DNA of 64,000 nucleotides, taken from assembly GCF_963921235.1 (NCBI RefSeq), contig NC_086097.1, forward strand, positions 77,192,001 through 77,256,000. Direction: 5' to 3'. Each line of letters begins with the position of its first letter. The stretch's first letter is position 1. This document shows, piece by piece, positions 3,191 to 21,362 of this stretch. The notes below the pieces were generated by a model, which had not been told where the DNA came from, did not search any database, and saw only the letters and a list, made by a program, of their open reading frames with translations. Origin of the DNA: Mobula hypostoma. Lineage: Eukaryota. Made by a program: the position numbers and the translations under genes.

Positions 3191-3772
3191 TACAGGCCAA
3201 TGAGATTAGCTCAGTTAGGCAACTTGAAGGACATGAACAAGTTGGAGTGACAGGCCTGTTCTCTGTACTATACGAGTCTAACTCTATGATCTTATAAACG
3301 TCTCCATTTTAACAATATTTGTAAAATCAACTATCACCCAAGTTTAAAGTTAGAACTTTGAGAATCTCATAGCTAAAGATATCTGGGCATCAATGGGTAT
3401 ACTAGTCAAGCCTTACAACACATTATGAAATGACCAGATTCGGAAACATATTCAACTATTTTATTTATACTTCTGCCGAGTATCACAAAATTATATTACC
3501 TCATTATACAAAGAGGTACAACTAGTTCTTGGAAACTATAAGTGAATTGATCAACCAAGTTAGTTAATGTAAGGTTATCAGGTGAAGGTTGCCATGAATC
3601 CAATATTTCAAATCCTGTTCTGTACTTCCCTCAAATTGCATCCCAGTTGCTTAACAGCATACCAGAAGCATTCTTTTGAAATTGATAATACACGGTCCAT
3701 TTTGAAATCTAGATGAAATTTCTCTTCACTAACTTTGTCACACAGTATTTGAATTTAACGCTGATTACTCAC

Positions 3773-10574: not shown

Positions 10575-11262
10575 ATAACCATATAACAATTACAGCACGG
10601 AAACAGGCCATCTCGGCCCTTCTAGTCCGTGCTGAACTCTTACCCTATCCTAGTCCCACCAACCTGCACTCAGCCCATAACCCTCTATTCCTTTCCTGTC
10701 CATATATCTATCTAATTTAACTTTAAATGACAACATAGAACCTGCCTCAACCACTTCTGCTGGAAGCTCATTCCACACAGCTACCGCTCTCTGAGTAAAG
10801 AAGTTCCCCCTCATGTTACCCCTAAGCTTTTGTCCTCTAACTCTCAACCTATGTCCTCTTGTTTGAATCTTCCCCACTCTCAATGGAAAAAAGTCTAACC
10901 ACGCCAACTCTATCAATTCCCCTCATAACTTTAAACACCTCTATCAAGTCCCCCCTCAGCCTTCTACACTCCAAAGAATAAAGACCTAACTTGTTCAACC
11001 TTTCTCTGTAACTTAGATGAAACCCAAGCAACATTTTAGTAAACCTCTTCTGTACTCTCTCAATTTTATTGACATCTTTCCTATAATTCGGTGACCAGAA
11101 CTGTACACAATACTCCAGATTTGGCCTTACCAATGCCTTATACAAATTCAACATTACATCCCAACTCAATGCTCTGATTAATAAAGGCCAGCAAACCAAA
11201 AGCTTTCTTCACCACCCTATCCACTTGAGAGTCCATCTTCAGAGAACTATGCACCATTATTC
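10575..11262 (-). mobile_element. CR1 LINE, 3' fragment
   Basis: ORFs LYKALVRPNLEYCVQFWSPNYRKD and TRGHRLRVRG..NFFTQRAVAVWNELP, followed by the 3' UTR and tail. Confidence 0.93.
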
Positions 11263-13395: not shown

Positions 13396-13566
13396 ATGCC
13401 ATCCTAAGAAAGACCCAATTATTCCTCAACACAATGTTGGAAATCCAGAGCAATGCACACAATGCTGGAGGAACACAGCAGGTCAGGCAGCATCTATGGA
13501 AATGAATAAACGTAGTTGGTCAGCTATTCAGAATTGACAAGAAATTTTTTACACACAAGACTGAAT

Positions 13567-13816
13567 GCTTGGAATTGTGTACCTTAGAGAATTGTGGAAG
13601 TTTTGTTAGTGAGTATTTCAGGACAGCAAATGATTTATTTTTGATATTAAAGAAATCAAGAGCTATGGTGTTAGTACAGGAAAGTGACTGAGAGATAAAA
13701 CATGATCTTTCGGAATGGCAAAGCAGGAACAAAGGACATTATTGCATATTCTTGGATTGATTTTTCATGCTATTATTTCATATCTTGATTCACTGAGGAT
13801 TTATTAAAGATACAGC
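13567..13816 (+). repeat. 250-bp segment duplicated at 15674-15922 (old CR1 3'-end relic plus flank)
   Basis: GCTTGGAATTGTGTACC...ATTAAAGATACAGC occurs twice with only a handful of differences. Confidence 0.95.
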
Positions 13817-15190: not shown

Positions 15191-16264
15191 TGTTATAAGG
15201 ATCTATCTCTTAGTAACAATGATCTGAGAGGCACAGAGAAAATCTGTATTTACTAACAAGTAACCTTTATTGTCTCAACTAAAAAGCATGTGGGTTCACA
15301 AACTATGAAATAATCGTTGAAAGTGATGCTTTTTGTCATGTTTGTACTGACCAAAATAAATTTCATTCATTCATTCATTCATTCACTCATTCACAAACTA
15401 TCTGTGTGCACACTCACAGAATTCCCTGACCCTCCATGAGCAGTCGATGAAGAGAAAAGCTATTACCCGGGAAAGGAGTCTGTGCTGGCCACGCGTTCCT
15501 CGTGCTCCAGATCTCCACGTGTTCATGGGGTCGTCCTCATCCATACTGGTTGCTGAAGAATTATTGTCTTTACGTACTTGGAGCTGACTCTTATAGTGTT
15601 CCTCTTTGGGTACACTATTGGCTCCAGGTCACCTGACCTACCTGGGTCATCTTCTTACTGGCTCTAGTCCAGGGCTTGGAATTGTGTACCTTAGAGAATT
15701 GTGGAAGTTTTGTTAGTGAGTATTTCAGGACAGCAAATGATTTATTTTTGGATATTAAAGAAATCAAGAGCTCTGGTGTTAGTACAGGAAAGTGACTGAG
15801 ATAAAACATGACCTTGTGGAATGGCAAAGCAGGAACAAAGGACATTATTGCATATTCTTGGATTGATTTTTCATGCTATTATTTCATATCTTGATTCACT
15901 GAGGATTTATTAAAGATACAGCCAATATTCTTCTATGTTTTCTGCCCCCCCCCCGCCCTATTCCTTTCAGCTCTGACTGGTTCAAACAGTCAAAACCAGG
16001 TGACCTAAACACTGAGTCTAATCAGATTACAGATCATGTTTGCCACTTTACAGAATAAATAGCTACTCATCTGAGAGCAGTCTCCGGTTTAGCAGCTGAA
16101 CCTTGTGTCCACATTCAATTGCTCTAATTAGATTATCCCAGAGCAAGAATCAGTTTAGAGTTCACAAAATGGAGGTGGGGACAGACAATTGGTTCGTCTG
16201 CTCTCCCTCTCCTTGATTCATCAAAATCCACTGATTTGTATGCTGTAGTTCCTTCTGGCCAACA
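15191..16264 (-). mobile_element. 3' LTR of an endogenous retrovirus-like element (contains a 249-bp inserted duplicate and a CATT microsatellite)
   Basis: On the minus strand it begins TGTTGG directly after the purine tract AAGAAGAGGTAG and ends ATAACA (TGTT...AACA). TATA-like CTATAAGAG near 15590; AATAAA at 15266-15271. Lies just downstream of the env-like gene. Confidence 0.65.
15674..15922 (+). repeat. Second copy of the 13567-13816 segment, inside the putative LTR
   Basis: Direct sequence comparison. Confidence 0.95.
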
Positions 16265-16419
16265 ACTACCTCTTCTTGATCCAAAGATACTGGTTTTAGG
16301 ATCATTATCCTCCTCTCATTCTGTTGACTGCCCACAGGACTGCCATGGAACCCTAGTAGGTGTGCAACACTTATTCTATAAATAATACTAACATTTACTT
16401 ACTAAATTCAAATTCAACT

Positions 16420-17773
16420 TTATACCAACAACTGTCTCTGCTGTTTCACAAAAGCATTATCCTCTAATTTTTGCATTATTTCAGCCTTCCACCTTCTCAG
16501 TTGATATGCATTAAGCATTATAATTATCAGTGTATATAAAATTAGTGTTATAGCAGCAGACGATACTATTCTCTCCCACAGATGTATTTGAACATTTGTT
16601 CCCCAATTCCAAAACTTACTCCAAAAGCCTGGGTCTCACTCAATATTTCATTTGCCTTGCCAGCGCGTGTTTTAATTACTTTAGTGTGTTTAGTCCACTG
16701 ATGGATTATGTCCTTTGCCTCCTCCATAACACGTGTCCAATCTGAAGTCAAGTGAGAAATTGGTGGCAACTCAGCAGCAACATAGTCCCACAGGTATCTA
16801 TCTGTATCAGTGTGTTGGTTCTTGAAGTTCTCCTTCATTGCTGTGTCGTGCTGGCTGAGGCAAAGTTTGTCCTCCAATGGCCAGATCAAAACCAAAGTCT
16901 GTATGGCGACATTGTGACTTTCCAAAGGGTATTGTTTCCATCCCTTGGTATAACTTGTGGTGACTGTTACTACGTAATACGTCTGTCCCACCAATGCATA
17001 TTGTAAGAAAAACTGATTATTCACAGGCAACATAGACAATGAACAATTTTCATGAGTGCCACAATTTGTAAGTTTCTGTTTTGTTGTTTCTTCTAGACAA
17101 GACCAATGGTCTCCCCCTTGATAACATCTTGAAAAATCTATCCCTTTTCTAGTACCATTCATAACAATAGCATGTGTTGGTGGGTTATTTAGGGATTTAT
17201 AAGAGTATTCTCGTGTTATTTACCAACATTGTGAACTCTTTTCACTCTGCATCCCCCCCCCACCTGCCCCCGCCCCCATACAATGTTATCTTGTGTACAG
17301 TTAATAATCAAAGCATCCTTTGGAAAATACTTGGCTATAACCACCTCAATAGGTATTTCGAGTGAATCACTGCTCCAACTCACATTCACTTGAGTGTGAT
17401 CCCACAGAACTGTAAACTTACCATGGACATCATTAACTAAGGGCTGTTCAGTAAATGGACCTAAAAACGCTATTGTTCCCTACTGGGATATTTGATATGA
17501 ACTTTCACCTTTGTAAATGTATTCTTTTACCCTCAGATATATCCCACATTTGGCTGTCTTCTCACCATCCTGTACAGGTGAGCAATCATCTACAAAGCAT
17601 AAATAATTTTTCCTTTGTTTGTCTTGGTTCTCCGATATTGCTTTCTGATCATGTTCCACCACCTCCCATTATTATTCGATACAAATGGTCCCTTAGGATC
17701 ATTTGTTATCGTATCCTGATGCCCATGTGGTTCTCCAGTACAATAAAAATATCTGCAAGGAAGGTAGAAACAT
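16420..17773 (-). pseudogene. Decayed retroviral-type env (class I fusion glycoprotein; foamy/lokiretrovirus/F-like)
   Basis: Reconstructed across stops and frameshifts: MFLPSLQIFLLYWRTTWASG (signal-like) ... GKFTVLWDHTQVNVSWSSDSLEIPIEVVIAKYF..INCTQ ... VHNVGK ... PPTHAIVMNGTRKGIDFSRCYQGGDHWSCLEETTKQKLTNCGTHENCSLSMLPV ... heptad-like helix ... FWSKFWNWG ... TM IVSSAAITLILYTLIIIMLNAY-QLRRWK ... stop at 16420-16422. Confidence 0.8.
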
Positions 17774-17789
17774 TAATACCCTTTTACAT

Positions 17790-18836
17790 AGAGCATAGAC
17801 CATAGAAATCTACAGCACATTACAGGCCTTGTAACCTGTCGACTATGTAACCTACTCTAGAAACTGCCTCGAATTACCCTACTGCATAGCCCTCTATTTT
17901 TCTAAGCACCATGTACCTCTAAGTCTCTCAAAAGACCCTATTGTATCCGCCTCCACCACCGTCGCTGGCAGTGCATTCCAGTGCACCACTCTGTGCGAAA
18001 AACTTGCTCCTGACATCTCCTCTGTACCTGCTTACAAGCACCTTAAAACTATGCCCCCTCCTGTTAGCCATTTCAGCCCTGGGAAAGAACCTCTGGCTAT
18101 CCACATGATCAATGCCCCTCATCATCTTGTACACCTCCATCAGGTCACTTCTATCCTGTCGCTCCCAGGAAAAAAGGCCAAGTTCACTCAACCTATTCTC
18201 ATAAGGCACACTCTCCAATCCAGGCAAAATCCTTGTAAATCTCCTCTGCACTCTTTCTATAGTATCCATTTCCTTCCTGTAGTGAAGTGACCAGAACTGA
18301 ACACAGTACTCCAAGTGGGTCTGACCAACATCTTATATGAACCACTTCACACTTATCTGGGTTGAAATCCATCTGCCACTTCTCAGCCCAGTTCTGCATC
18401 CTACTGATGACCTGCTGTAACCTCTGACAACCCTCCAGACTATCCACAACACCCCCAACCTTTGTGTCATTAGTGAACTTACTAACCCACCCTTCTACTT
18501 CCTCATCCGGGTTATTTATAATAATCACAAAGAGGAGGGGTCCCAGAACTGATCCCTGTGGAACACCACTGGTCACCGTCCTCCATGCAGAATACGAACC
18601 ATCTACCACTACCCTTGCCTTCTGTGGGCAAGCCAGTTCTGGATCCACAAACAAGGTCTCCTTGGATCCCATGCCTCCTTACTTTCTGAATGAGATTGTA
18701 TTGGGAACCTTATCAAATGCCTTACTGAAATCCATATACACTACATTCACCGCTTTACCTTCATCAATTTGTTTTGTTACATCCTCAAAGAATTCAATCA
18801 GGCTGATAAGGCACGTCCTGCCCTTGAGAAAGTCAT
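17790..18836 (-). mobile_element. CR1 LINE, 3' fragment with internal deletion, inserted just upstream of the env
   Basis: VTSGVPQGSVLGPLLF, KFTNDTKVGG and EYCVQFWSLHYRK motifs; tail TTCTATGGTCTATG. Confidence 0.93.
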
Positions 18837-18954
18837 ACAACTATACCTCAACCTTGCAATGTCGGGGCTGACTAACCAAGTCACTTTAATTTAAACATCC
18901 AGCAGCAGCTTAATAAACATGTTCTATATAAAAATATGATCAGGATATAGATTA

Positions 18955-20053: not shown

Positions 20054-20734
20054 TTGTTTCCAGAGGTTTCAGTATTGGATTTACATTAGCTGCCTTGACC
20101 CCAGATCTTAAATTCCTCCCTTAACACCTCCGTTTTAATTATAGGGAGCAAACTATTCAGCCCACTGCATTCATCCTGACCAGTGGGTACTCATCTACAT
20201 TAATCACACATGGCTTGTAGCTTTCTATCCCTAGGTGATTCAATTGTTAATATGGACACTTCTTAAATGGTGACAGCAAATCTGCTTCCACCACTATCTC
20301 CGGCAGCACATTCCAGGTATTCACCACTCCAAGTGAAGCAAGTTTCTCTCACATCTCCTTTCAGTATCTTATCCCTAAGCTTAAAACTATATCTTCAACT
20401 TTTATGCTCCTTAATCTTCCTCCATCCTTCCTGACACTTCTTTCTGTAGGTTAGTGTCAATAATGGAGGTAGCAAATAAACAAAATGGTTTTGACAAGGT
20501 ACCTTCAACAATAATGTGAGTGCTTTACAGCACTTTTTAAAATGTATTTTATTTGTTTTTGCACTATTTTAATCTATTCAATATACACACATATATATAC
20601 TTAATATAATCAATTTACTTATTTTTTGCCCTTTCTATATTTTCATGCATTGCATTGAACTGCTGCTGCTGCTGCGTTAGTAAATTTCATGACACATGCT
20701 GCTGATAATAAACCTGATGCTGATTACAGAGTTA

Positions 20735-21362
20735 TGATGTGGATGTGGTGAGGACCTGCAAGTACCTGGGGATGCTCCTGGAAGACAGACTTGAGTGGAG
20801 CACCAACACAGAGACCGTGTACAAGAAGGGCCAGAGCCACTTCTACTTCCTGAGGAGACTGAGGTCCTTTGGAGTACACAGGCCTCTCCTTCACATGATC
20901 TACCAGTCTGTTGCCACCAGTACAATCTTCTATATGGTGGTGTGGTGGGGTAATGGCATCACCCACGGTGATGCCAAAAGGCTCAATAAACTGATTAGAA
21001 AGGCTGTTATAGGAGTCAAACTCGACACACTGTAGGCTGAGCCTACAAAAAATCCTGGCAATTCTGGGCAACGTTTCTCACCCTCTGCATGCCACCTTGG
21101 CTGAACAGAGAAGCACTTTTAGTCATAGACTGAGGCAACTGTGCTGCTCCAAAAAGCACTATGAGGTCATTCTCACTCTCAGCCATTAGGCTCTAATATC
21201 AGTCAACCTATAGTTGGGGAAGTGATGAACCCCTCCTGTTGGGCTGTTTGAGTTAACTTATTTTTTAATTCTTTCTTACTTCTCTTCTAATATTTGTGCT
21301 CTTGTGATGCTACTATGACACTGTAGTTTCCTTTGTGATCAATAAAGTATCTATCTATCCAT
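20735..21362 (+). mobile_element. Rex1/Babar-type LINE, 3' fragment
   Basis: ORF KYLGMLLEDRLEWSTNTETVYKKGQSHFYFLRRLRSFGV; tail AATAAAGTATCTATCTATC. Confidence 0.85.

Follow-up and report, generated by a model that had tools for sequence, protein, structure and literature searches.

The window analysed here is a stretch of 64,000 nucleotides from Mobula hypostoma. On its minus strand, at 15191-17736, lies a copy of an endogenous retrovirus belonging to an old multi-copy family. The copy is dead, truncated at its 5' end and carries two internal deletions. A scrap of RNase H, a scrap of SU, the C-terminal part of the fusion subunit and the 3' LTR survive; the integrase, furin site, fusion peptide and first heptad repeat (HRA) are gone (Table 1). 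The Env of this copy comprises the C-terminal ~260 residues (the last third only), interrupted by a stop and frameshifts.

Table 1. Features in and next to the window copy (positions are those of the window).
Feature	Position	Strand	Basis
Open piece of 87 aa, ending RVHNVGK	17216-17479	minus	translation
Open piece of 217 aa, with NNPPTH and GIDFSRC-x8-C-x11-C-x5-C	16566-17219	minus	translation
Open piece of 71 aa, with FWSKFWNWG, hydrophobic span, RRWK and short tail	16420-16635	minus	translation
pol RNase H remnant in two reading frames; 5'-most surviving part of the element	17534-17736	minus	tblastn, blastn
Env SU N-terminal domain remnant (presumed receptor-binding)	17279-17473	minus	tblastn, blastn
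Env fusion-subunit ectodomain, C-terminal half: beta-rich domains, four-cysteine block, HRB helix	16641-17244	minus	P0001 alignment
Trp-rich membrane-proximal stretch, TM helix, cytoplasmic tail of ~27 residues, env stop codon	16420-16635	minus	P0001 alignment, translation
3' LTR in three blocks (16281-15964, 15676-15393, 15305-15191)	15191-16281	minus	blastn to both C9 LTRs, 68-81% identity
Reverse-transcriptase fragment of a separate element, abutting the truncated 5' end	17835-18840	minus	Pfam RVT_1

The minus-strand motifs pointed out by the sequence-only reading (VHNVGK, PPTH, the GIDFSRC four-cysteine block, FWSKFWNWG, RRWK and a short tail) are present in the translated pieces, and the sequons NVS, NCT, NGT and NCS were all found in the translation. 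Its fossil env stands as a retroviral Env remnant with a stop and frameshifts, but not as a full env, since ~2.25 kb have been deleted; an alternative in which a full-length env is read through frameshifts was rejected, as the deletions are real. What it took for a signal-like N-terminus (17480-17773) is actually pol RNase H. Positions 17736-17534 match residues 71-141 of the RNase H frame of another locus, L033, in two frames (residues 71-94 on 17736-17665 and 102-141 on 17644-17534; tblastn), and 17728-17607 shares 77% DNA identity with L033 502-622 (blastn). The L033 frame matches Pfam RNase_H (7.7e-07).

The SU remnant matches residues 112-178 of a 548-aa env frame at locus L054 (40% identity, E 1e-9; tblastn), and its positions 17425-17292 align to L033 2838-2977 (blastn). 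It is flanked by both deletions, with the integrase lost upstream and the remaining SU, furin site, fusion peptide and HRA lost downstream. The two gaps span 182 bp and 48 bp in the window copy, where the copy on contig C9 has 2216 bp and 2251 bp, respectively (blastn); the second represents the ~2.25 kb missing between 17292 and 17244. The ectodomain part aligns to residues 477-662 of P0001, an intact Env from elsewhere in the host genome (40% identity, frame -3), and is stop-free inside; an in-frame stop lies at 17216-17218, with a frame change directly after it. The membrane-proximal and tail part aligns to P0001 residues 664-718 (45% identity) in frame -2, which differs from the frame of the preceding part. 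The 217-aa piece is 40% identical to P0001 (E 1e-41), the 71-aa tail piece matches it at E 2e-14, and the window env DNA is 81.9% identical to the C9 copy over 1224 nt (blastn). As the cleavage site, fusion peptide and HRA are missing, the window copy has no protein function.

The 3' LTR is split by a foreign insertion of ~290 bp at 15677-15963. A search of the 64 kb window with the C9 LTRs (blastn) found no 5' LTR partner; the only LTR matches were those at 15191-16281. The reverse-transcriptase-like frame beyond the truncated end (18199-18678, Pfam RVT_1 3.5e-11) was considered as the pol linked to env and rejected, having no similarity to the provirus, and blastn of the window above 17728 against both reference proviruses matched only other repeats. 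By our own reading of its sequence, the element at 17835-18840 is probably of non-LTR type. The window copy on its own is ordinary genomic debris, and the interest lies in the family behind it.

Fuller copies in the host genome, which the sequence-only reading had proposed to look for, were recovered: proviruses laid out LTR-gag-pro-pol-env-LTR and one intact env. With E <= 0.001 as the limit, the host genome has at least 154 matches to the 217-aa piece, 150 of 690 candidates having been scored; the best non-self match is at 3.2e-81, and this similarity is far beyond chance. The RNase H piece matches 152 places. At no fewer than 20 loci an RNase H match lies 2-7 kb upstream of an env match on the same strand (our reading of the match table). 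Most copies are broken. The two reference proviruses, C9 and C21, have LTR pairs that are 81.8% identical over 798 nt and 91.8% identical over 687 nt, respectively. Gag has a coiled coil and a single CCHC knuckle, which scores above the cut-off in the gag frame of the C21 provirus (zf-CCHC 5.5e-6), a DTG protease motif is present in the family, and the family matches Pfam RVT_1 (6.9e-34), RNase_H (7.7e-7) and Integrase_H2C2 (1.3e-14). In the window, as at three other loci, pol and an LTR flank the env frames. Only ~140-155 bp separate the env stop of the window copy from its 3' LTR, and there are therefore no tas/bet-type genes after env.

The intact env (G000:C2:126459313-126461511) has 733 stop-free codons. 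Its product, P0001, has a hydrophobic N-terminus, eight sequons, 15 cysteines, a transmembrane span at ~680-715 and a single R-x-[KR]-R site at 279-282, after which comes a hydrophobic, glycine-rich stretch; the basic site stays R/K-rich in other copies. No Env of the family reached the cut-off of any Pfam family in three scans that reported matches to E 10, 1 and 0.01. Fusion_gly (PF00523) matched none of 40 sequences (five window pieces, P0001 and 34 relatives), Foamy_virus_ENV (PF03408) was listed neither for P0001 or the 34 relatives nor for the window pieces, and no TLV_coat-type match was obtained for the window pieces or P0001. One relative gave a weak Baculo_F match (E 0.0011), below the cut-off. 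A phmmer search and two profile searches against PDB sequences returned nothing significant; the best match was the HR2/membrane-proximal region of HIV gp41 (E 0.44), which we read as convergence. The ESM Atlas returned class I fusion proteins at scores of 0.77-0.85, which we treat as leads and not as evidence.

Structure prediction and Foldseek, as the sequence-only reading had suggested, were applied to the intact P0001. A first whole-length model (pLDDT 36.5) was discarded unsearched. The model that was searched, built on 52 sequences, had a pLDDT of 70.7 and a pTM of 0.53. All 43 Foldseek matches listed against the PDB (ranks 1-49) were paramyxovirus or pneumovirus F proteins, the best being 6apb_A (E 8.1e-11, prob 1.00). 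VIA-align gave a Z-score of 11.6 both for 1ztm_B (363 residues aligned) and for 6apb_A (370 aligned). In a Foldseek-independent search of 48,161 representatives, rank 1 was the F protein of Newcastle disease virus (Z 10.3, 350 aligned), and the foamy virus Env 8rm1_D aligned over 299 of 321 residues (Z 8.3); foamy Env was absent from the Foldseek PDB matches listed and appeared only in this search. The rows with more than 250 residues aligned were three F proteins and foamy Env, and the long helix of the model also drew many helix-only matches (Z 8-9.6). TM-scores were only 0.3-0.45. Among the 50 BFVD matches listed were arthropod mononegavirus glycoproteins, baculovirus F (9.3e-13), paramyxovirus F0, WEHV-1 Env (7.8e-8), WDSV Env (1.1e-6) and feline foamy gp130 (9.8e-6), but not the Env of snakehead retrovirus (SnRV). 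The resemblance to paramyxovirus F and foamy Env claimed from the sequence is thus borne out by the modelled P0001, which matches both folds.

These results support the reading of the family Env as an F-type class I fusion glycoprotein. Because the sequence-profile searches against the PDB found nothing significant, the claim depends on a structure prediction whose confidence is middling. The fold was obtained on the intact relative P0001 and not on the window copy, whose ectodomain part corresponds approximately to model residues 268-468, inside the stretches aligned to F proteins. In this reading, Env begins with a signal peptide and an N-terminal domain of ~190 residues, followed by an F2-like segment, a single furin-type R-x-K/R-R site and a fusion peptide. 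Next come the long HRA helix, the beta-rich domains with their conserved cysteines and the HRB helix, and the protein closes with a Trp-rich membrane-proximal stretch, its transmembrane anchor and a short tail. The fold suggests that the Env of the live virus would have been furin-cut and trimeric, with fusion probably driven by the refolding of HRA and HRB into a six-helix bundle.

Relatives of this Env, intact or partial, are labelled 'uncharacterized protein' by NCBI, and a preprint (10.64898/2026.05.06.723177) reports, in the part available, 295 syncytin-like Env candidates in chondrichthyans. Both would suit a reading of the frames as a cellular gene or as a gamma-type (syncytin-like) Env of the kind surveyed there. 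The frames, however, have pol on one side and an LTR on the other, both here and at three further loci, the family is multi-copy and mostly broken, and neither CX6CC nor CXXC was found in P0001, in keeping with the earlier observation that the gamma-type immunosuppressive domain (ISD) and CX6CC are absent. In the VIA-align comparison and the Foldseek-independent search, the fold matches covering more than 250 residues were without exception viral F or foamy Env. The LTR and pol context refutes the cellular or gamma-type reading for the window copy, and we give it practically no chance. The survey, as far as the available part of the preprint describes it, required an ISD and CX6CC, so an F-type Env, being a different Env type, falls outside its criteria.

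A family HMM run over 1.84 billion proteins gave 37 matches, of which 20 were looked up. Eighteen of the 20 came from sharks, skates and rays and one from a frog (Pelodytes); no ray-finned-fish protein was among the 20 looked up. The Env family occurs in at least nine chondrichthyan species, Scyliorhinus torazame among them, and in one frog. The host had been recognised from sequence as a cartilaginous fish, which fits relatives that are nearly all chondrichthyan, the closest being 93% identical to a Hypanus sabinus protein.

We compared pol against solved structures and database sequences. For the RT, foamy PR-RT scored best (154 bits), followed by MLV-type (144), Ty3 (111) and HIV-2 (69) enzymes. 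The best solved match of the integrase was PFV integrase (61.8 bits; no NYNRIN structure exists for comparison) and that of the RNase H was the foamy RNase H 2lsn (34.5 bits), placing both nearest to foamy viruses among solved structures. The best RT database matches are named 'NYNRIN-like' by NCBI, a name that is NCBI's only; CGIN1, with which the lokiretrovirus integrase groups (see below), is presumably an older name of NYNRIN. The nearest pol relatives are endogenous retroviruses of coelacanth, frogs and turtles. An RT tree, made by a quick search with SH-aLRT support only, separated a vertebrate clade from gypsy-type rows (SH-aLRT 100). The family RT is 44% identical to that of Pol P0057, which has four SnRV RT motifs exactly and on these four matches would be the SnRV Pol. 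P0057 falls within a 20-row clade (SH-aLRT 99) of the SnRV-motif Pol, rows that we labelled MLVIN_C/Gag_p30 and a few unlabelled fish and frog rows, whereas the family RT falls outside it. Judged by its pol sequence, the family belongs to the vertebrate retroviruses but not to their gamma/epsilon/SnRV group; the tree holds no foamy, foamy-like ERV, lokiretrovirus or class II references and its base is unresolved.

Lokiretroviruses, a lineage sister to all other retroviruses, have an Env known to be F-like, and the family could be their chondrichthyan branch. In the available part of the lokiretrovirus report (PMC7947760), the Env is laid out as in the family, from signal peptide and RXKR site through fusion peptide and coiled coil to the transmembrane anchor, and the printed sequence shares, by eye, V-x-NVG, PPT-x-A, C..(Y/H)WVCP..CG..C and an early G(I/L)VL(Q/E)E block. 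There, the lokiretrovirus RNase H clusters with that of foamy viruses and the integrase with CGIN1; the family RNase H is nearest to a foamy RNase H, and the best RT matches of the family are named 'NYNRIN-like'. The RT motifs differ: the printed rows compared by eye (Loki-Rca, Loki-Xtr and Loki-Npa) have PFGY-I/SN and WRLCADLR, the family has LPQGFHNSP and WRLTIDYR, and motifs of the latter type occur in all nearest database matches where our motif script found them. PF00523 is given as matching lokiretrovirus Env at 2.2e-7 but, as noted, matches none of the 40 family sequences scanned; a six-frame PF00523 search of the host genome also returned no matches, which is uninformative given that control genomes likewise returned none. 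The same part of the report lists none of six chondrichthyan genomes as positive, and these include S. torazame, a carrier of the Env family. The lack of ray-finned-fish proteins among the HMM matches looked up points the same way. Lokiretrovirus membership is unlikely, and we would be surprised if it proved correct.

A stronger case can be made for a foamy-like ERV, i.e., a basal member of Spumaretrovirinae such as CmiFLERV of the elephant shark or XtrFLERV of a frog, with an Env that is a diverged foamy Env. Among solved structures, RT, RNase H and integrase all match foamy enzymes best, the solved foamy Env aligns over most of its compared length, and feline foamy gp130 is in the BFVD list. 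The F-likeness of foamy Env is already established in the available part of PMC11468914. Shark foamy-like ERVs with a frog element nested among them are described in the part of PMC5512871 available, which fits the Pelodytes Env relative and the frog RT relatives; the shark elements were, in the available portions of two publications, described without an Env found, and an unrecognised Env is possible. On the other side, the family Gag has a CCHC zinc knuckle, which foamy viruses lack according to the available part of PMC2717909, and its Env has the N-terminal domain ahead of the F2-like segment, whereas the foamy receptor-binding domain sits inside domain III (PMC11468914, in part). PF03408 matches neither P0001 nor its 34 relatives, and the short interval between env and the 3' LTR leaves no tas/bet-type genes. 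A six-frame PF03408 search of the host genome gave no matches and is uninformative, control genomes likewise giving none. The RT scores for foamy and MLV-type enzymes are nearly tied, and the RT tree contains no foamy or foamy-like ERV row. True foamy virus membership fails on the sequence features tested (Gag knuckle, PF03408 and accessory genes), and we regard the foamy-like reading as a possibility of some weight that is, on balance, doubtful. Work by Wang, Chen and Cui (2023) is said to treat endogenous foamy viruses of cartilaginous fishes and may already describe the family or its Env.

The proposal of a spumavirus- or lokiretrovirus-like remnant thus stands as far as an endogenous retrovirus with an F-like fold is concerned, while membership in either named lineage is unsupported. 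Taken together, it is highly probable that the window holds a dead ERV copy of a family whose Env is an F-type class I fusion protein and which, on the features tested, belongs neither to the lokiretroviruses nor to the true foamy viruses.

The intact copy may be a co-opted host gene. It is 92.6% identical to the H. sabinus protein, which was the only homologue returned by a word-index search, both with P0001 and with a 42-row alignment. The H. sabinus counterpart is also intact, with zero indels, and conserves all 15 cysteines and all eight sequons; identity is 95-97% in the fusion core and 86% in the N-terminal domain. The pol remnant ahead of the intact env is broken by 12 stops over 488 aligned codons. 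The intact env is covered by contigs from two small runs, which were only guessed to be of RNA: six pieces with 0-1 differences over env in run X1 and one 2875-nt contig on L031 3625-6497 in run X2. Cover of the adjacent pol remnant (1003-2338) is almost nil in both runs, and none of this is taken as a sign of transcription. Tentatively, the intact env could be a host-captured stingray F-type fusion gene within an unrecognised F-type Env family of sharks, skates, rays and a frog that has a non-lokiretroviral pol, a combination that we think rather unlikely to hold in full. If true, F-type Env would be ancestral among basal retroviruses or would have been swapped between deep retroviral lineages. 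The intact, conserved stingray copy is in any case a testable candidate for host capture.

F-fold retroviral Envs have so far been documented, in the parts of the literature available, from sequence in lokiretroviruses and from structure in foamy viruses. The F fold would now extend to a family that no Pfam model recognises and whose pol seems neither that of a lokiretrovirus nor quite that of a foamy virus. The family is relevant to whether the F-type env was present in a retroviral common ancestor or was acquired or swapped, a question for which Wang and Han set out four env-origin scenarios, undecided in the available part of their report (PMC7947760). The family may also be part of the answer to the missing Env of shark ERVs, as these are described in the sources available.

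Among known systems, the F proteins of paramyxoviruses and pneumoviruses (1ztm, 6apb and 3maw) match the model over 350-370 residues, a span that takes in the F2-like strands, HRA, the beta domains and HRB. In these proteins, as in the family Env, the cleavage site is followed in turn by the fusion peptide, HRA, HRB and the transmembrane anchor. They differ in that sequence identity is 8-13% without a sequence-profile match, the family Env is carried by a reverse-transcribing element, and it has its own N-terminal domain, by which a separate attachment protein would probably be unneeded. Baculovirus F matches in BFVD by predicted structure; it and errantivirus Env come from insect viruses and gypsy-type elements. 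The predicted structures of epsilonretrovirus (walleye) Envs also match there, and these proteins are about twice as long. SnRV and related ERVs ('clade Huo'; PMC6001957) share with the family a Gag in which an N-terminal coiled coil is combined with a single zinc knuckle. The RT placement described above sets SnRV apart, as do its Env tail of 136 residues, compared with ~20-30 in the family, and its accessory ORFs, of which the family has none. The lokiretrovirus Env (Wang and Han 2020; PMC7947760, in the part available) shares the likeness to F, the layout and, by eye, the cysteine block, whereas the family Env has the extra N-terminal domain of ~190 residues and no PF00523 match in 40 sequences. 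Foamy Env gp130 (8rm1; PMC11468914, in the part available) has a leader-peptide architecture not seen in the family Env and a receptor-binding domain located elsewhere, but the two have an F-like fusion core in common, and the foamy Pol enzymes are the nearest solved relatives of those of the family.

Five open pieces lie on the minus strand of the window between 16420 and 17772 and, as the sequence-only reading had described, carry recognisable motifs of a retroviral envelope (Env) protein, including the sequons NVS, NCT, NGT and NCS. The three lower pieces hold every listed motif except a signal-like N-terminus. A search of the host genome with the 217-aa piece (16566-17219), in which 150 of 690 first-look candidates were scored, matched at least 154 places (E ≤ 0.001, 33-76% identity, stops in nearly all), so the motifs are not there by chance. 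Comparison of the window copy with two better-preserved proviruses of this endogenous retrovirus (ERV) family, on contigs C9 and C21 of the host genome, revealed that the supposed signal-like N-terminus is instead part of the pol RNase H.

Features of the window copy and of the intact env (window coordinates unless a contig or stretch is named)
Feature	Position	Strand	Basis or remark
RVHNVGK	end of piece 17216-17479	minus	translation
NNPPTH and GIDFSRC-x8-C-x11-C-x5-C	piece 16566-17219	minus	translation
FWSKFWNWG, hydrophobic span, RRWK, tail of ~27 residues	piece 16420-16635	minus	translation
pol RNase H, two frames	17736-17534	minus	comparison with better copies
Deletion of ~2.2 kb between RNase H and SU scraps (remaining RNase H and whole integrase lost)		minus	
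Scrap of the Env surface subunit (SU), from its N-terminal domain	17473-17279	minus	comparison with better copies
Deletion of ~2.25 kb after SU scrap (rest of SU, cleavage site, fusion peptide and first heptad repeat lost)		minus	
Last ~260 Env residues	17244-16420	minus	corresponds to P0001 463-718, 40-45% identity; C9 DNA 81.9%
3' LTR	16281-15191	minus	divided by ~290 bp foreign insertion (15677-15963)
Intact env, 733 codons, no stop	L031 3313-5511 = G000:C2:126459313-126461511	+	genome match

The surviving Env part is interrupted by one in-frame stop (17216-17218) and two frame changes, and takes in the later beta domains, which hold the four-cysteine block, as well as the second heptad repeat, the membrane-proximal stretch and the anchor. 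No 5' LTR was found anywhere within the 64 kb window. The gap between the env stop and the 3' LTR is only about 140-155 bp, and there are therefore no accessory genes after env. An RT-like frame at 18199-18678 (RVT_1, 3.5e-11) was considered as the pol of this provirus and rejected, as it has no similarity and is part of another element. The window copy is an ordinary fragment of a dead ERV.

Other repeats surround it. The insertion that splits the LTR includes a translated stretch (..KNKSFAVLKYSLTKLPQFSKVHNSK..) also found at 13520-13738, 2 kb away, and probably represents one of the short interspersed repeats of the host genome. LINE debris is dense across the window, and frames at 20724-21035 (+), 10849-11208 (-) and 17928-18332 (-) carry common non-LTR retrotransposon ORF2 tail motifs (..LEYCVQFWSP..RVQRRFTR..), one of them matching Pfam ALKBH8_N at 1.3e-8.

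The C21 copy retains the full plan of the family: LTR, primer-binding site, gag, protease, RT, tether and RNase H, integrase, env, LTR. Gag begins with a coiled-coil part and carries a single CCHC knuckle (Pfam zf-CCHC, 5.5e-6), the protease motif is DTG, and Pfam domains were recognised in the RT (RVT_1, 6.9e-34, in a 287-aa frame of the stretch L050), the RNase H (7.7e-7) and the zinc-binding domain of the integrase (1.3e-14). RNase H matches occur at 152 places in the host genome; read from the match table, at least 20 loci have one 2-7 kb upstream of an env match on the same strand, so the linkage of pol and env is a family trait and no accident of nesting. The LTR pairs are 81.8% (C9, 798 nt) and 91.8% (C21, 687 nt) identical. 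If neutral change proceeds near the assumed 1e-9 per site per year, LTR divergences of 8-18% place the insertions tens of millions of years ago. The C21 primer-binding site (3581-3602 of its stretch, L053) starts with TGG directly after the 5' LTR end. Its first 17 bases would fit the 3' end of a vertebrate tRNA-Asn rather than that of tRNA-Lys, the primer of foamy viruses.

Among 79 env matches, a single one is full-length and free of stops. It lies on contig C2 and encodes the protein P0001; the open frame measures 741 codons between stops, or 733 counted from its first ATG. The N-terminus of P0001 is hydrophobic, and its one R-x-[KR]-R site (279-282) precedes a hydrophobic stretch rich in Gly. 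The protein also has 8 sequons, 15 cysteines, a Trp-rich stretch and a transmembrane span at about 680-715. A motif scan of the whole protein found neither CX6CC nor CXXC, in agreement with the earlier observation that the gamma-type motif is missing. No Pfam family reached the cut-off in P0001, the window pieces or the 34 relatives scanned (one relative had a Baculo_F match below threshold, E 0.0011), and sequence and profile searches of the PDB with the Env gave no significant match.

Modelled at full length from 22 close sequences, P0001 gave a pLDDT of 36.5. A second model, of residues 196-700, drew on 52 sequences, shark and frog relatives among them, and reached a pLDDT of 70.7 and a pTM of 0.53, with F2-like strands and a beta-rich region at pLDDT 80-94. 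What survives of Env in the window matches about residues 268-505 of this model. Foldseek returned 232 PDB matches (E ≤ 0.001); the 43 listed, within ranks 1-49, are all F proteins of paramyxoviruses or pneumoviruses, the best among them being post-fusion RSV F (8.1e-11, probability 1.00, TM-scores 0.38/0.43). VIA-align gave Z 11.6 to both hPIV3 F (363 aligned) and RSV F (370 aligned) over model residues 19-473. When 48,161 representatives were searched without Foldseek, Newcastle disease virus F ranked first (Z 10.3, 350 aligned), and alignments of more than 250 residues were reached only by three F proteins and by 8rm1_D, a solved foamy virus Env (Z 8.3, 299 of 321 aligned). Most other high-ranking entries were set aside, as only 70-90 long-helix residues aligned. 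In BFVD, the best matches are arthropod mononegavirus glycoproteins, baculovirus F and paramyxovirus F0, with retroviral Envs at lower ranks (WEHV-1, 7.8e-8; WDSV, 1.1e-6; feline foamy virus, 9.8e-6). An F-type fold for the family Env, as first proposed from its cysteine pattern, is thus supported by a predicted monomer of middling confidence.

A family profile searched against 1.84 billion representative proteins gave 37 matches (E ≤ 0.001). Of 20 looked up, 18 are chondrichthyan, one is from a frog and one is unnamed; the chondrichthyan species include Mustelus asterias, Chiloscyllium punctatum (with a C. plagiosum cluster member), Scyliorhinus torazame, Heterodontus francisci, Pristiophorus japonicus, Heptranchias perlo, Rhinoraja longicauda and Pristis pectinata. 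P0001 has its closest counterpart in Hypanus sabinus, where an 'uncharacterized protein' is 93% identical; the host is therefore a stingray or near relative, in line with the cartilaginous fish suspected from the sequence. Two of the 18 chondrichthyan matches are chimeric gene models. The NCBI models P0012 and P0030 have Env pieces of the family fused to host genes (a TRP-channel-like protein in P. pectinata and an fbxo15 isoform in H. francisci) and are probably annotation chimeras over intronic ERV fragments. The frog protein, P0014 from Pelodytes ibericus, is a full-length Env of the family (723 aa), matched by the chondrichthyan profile at E 2.9e-13. Its cleavage site, its cysteine block and a WWD..YNV motif near the membrane are shared with P0011 of Chiloscyllium, and its occurrence in a frog echoes a published element, also from a frog, that nests within the foamy-like ERVs of sharks.

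Among solved structures, the family RT scored highest against foamy PR-RT (154 bits), followed by MLV-type RT (144), Ty3 (111) and HIV-2 (69), and RNase H and integrase also scored best against foamy proteins (PFV integrase, 61.8 bits). The best database matches of the RT are ERV Pols from coelacanth (55%), four frogs (51-55%) and turtles (46-47%). A further match, the Pol P0057, is 44% identical and carries four snakehead retrovirus (SnRV) RT motifs exactly as published. In a quick maximum-likelihood analysis of 42 RTs, assembled without foamy, lokiretrovirus or class II references, 34 vertebrate sequences separated from gypsy-type ones (SH-aLRT 100), and P0057 joined sequences labelled MLVIN_C or Gag_p30 in a clade of 20 (SH-aLRT 99). 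The family RT falls outside this clade, among the coelacanth, frog and turtle sequences of an unresolved basal grade.

A basal foamy-like position is a serious minority reading: foamy Env is known to be F-like (PMC11468914), and elephant shark and a catshark have foamy-like ERVs in which no Env was recognised (PMC5512871 and PMC10699275). However, the family Gag has a zinc knuckle, PF03408 is not matched, accessory genes are missing and the outer domain of the Env is placed differently from that of foamy Env. Membership among the lokiretroviruses is much less probable. The lokiretroviruses of PMC7947760 have the same Env layout and, by eye, one of their Envs shares with the family a block around V-x-NVG, PPT and the WVCP..CG..C cysteines, but the lokiretrovirus RT sequences compared, also by eye, differ from the family RT at motifs where the family agrees with SnRV and its own nearest matches. 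PF00523 matched lokiretrovirus Env at 2.2e-7 there but none of 40 family sequences, and none of its six chondrichthyan genomes was lokiretrovirus-positive, S. torazame included; S. torazame carries the Env of our family (profile match). The lineage is probably neither lokiretrovirus nor foamy virus. Of the spumavirus-like or lokiretrovirus-like remnant originally proposed, the ERV and its F-like Env are supported by sequence and predicted fold; membership in either named lineage is not.

No description of F-type Env in chondrichthyan ERVs was found in the portions available of the lokiretrovirus, endogenous-foamy/shark, SnRV Env, foamy Env/F protein and syncytin/stingray literature, although Wang, Chen and Cui 2023 (J Virol) may bear on this. 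A 2026 preprint on chondrichthyan syncytin-like Envs (10.64898/2026.05.06.723177) required an ISD and a C-X6-CC motif and therefore concerns another Env type; no mention of Hypanus or stingrays was found in its available text. The family is modestly new among F-type retroviral Envs.

The family has one intact copy that deserves further attention. In L031, the stretch containing it, the env comes after pol remains in which 12 stops interrupt 488 aligned codons (13 in 546 with a gag/protease scrap), and a 3' LTR remnant follows. At 13 stops per 546 codons, a frame as long as 733 codons would stay open by chance with a probability of about 3e-8. P0001 and the Hypanus sabinus protein differ at 54 of 733 residues with no indels (92.6% identical); residues 1-195 are 86.2% and the fusion machinery 93-97% identical, and all 15 P0001 cysteines and 8 sequons are conserved, a pattern as would be expected if selection had preserved the Env. 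The intact env is thus a candidate host-captured F-type env, and such a capture would have precedent in the co-opted endogenous foamy virus genes reported from geckos (PMC6669660). Across L031 (1-10000), two small public runs of guessed library type have contigs over the intact env, with 0-1 differences in the same-species run and 159 in 2875 nt in that of a relative, and almost no cover of the adjoining pol remnant in either.
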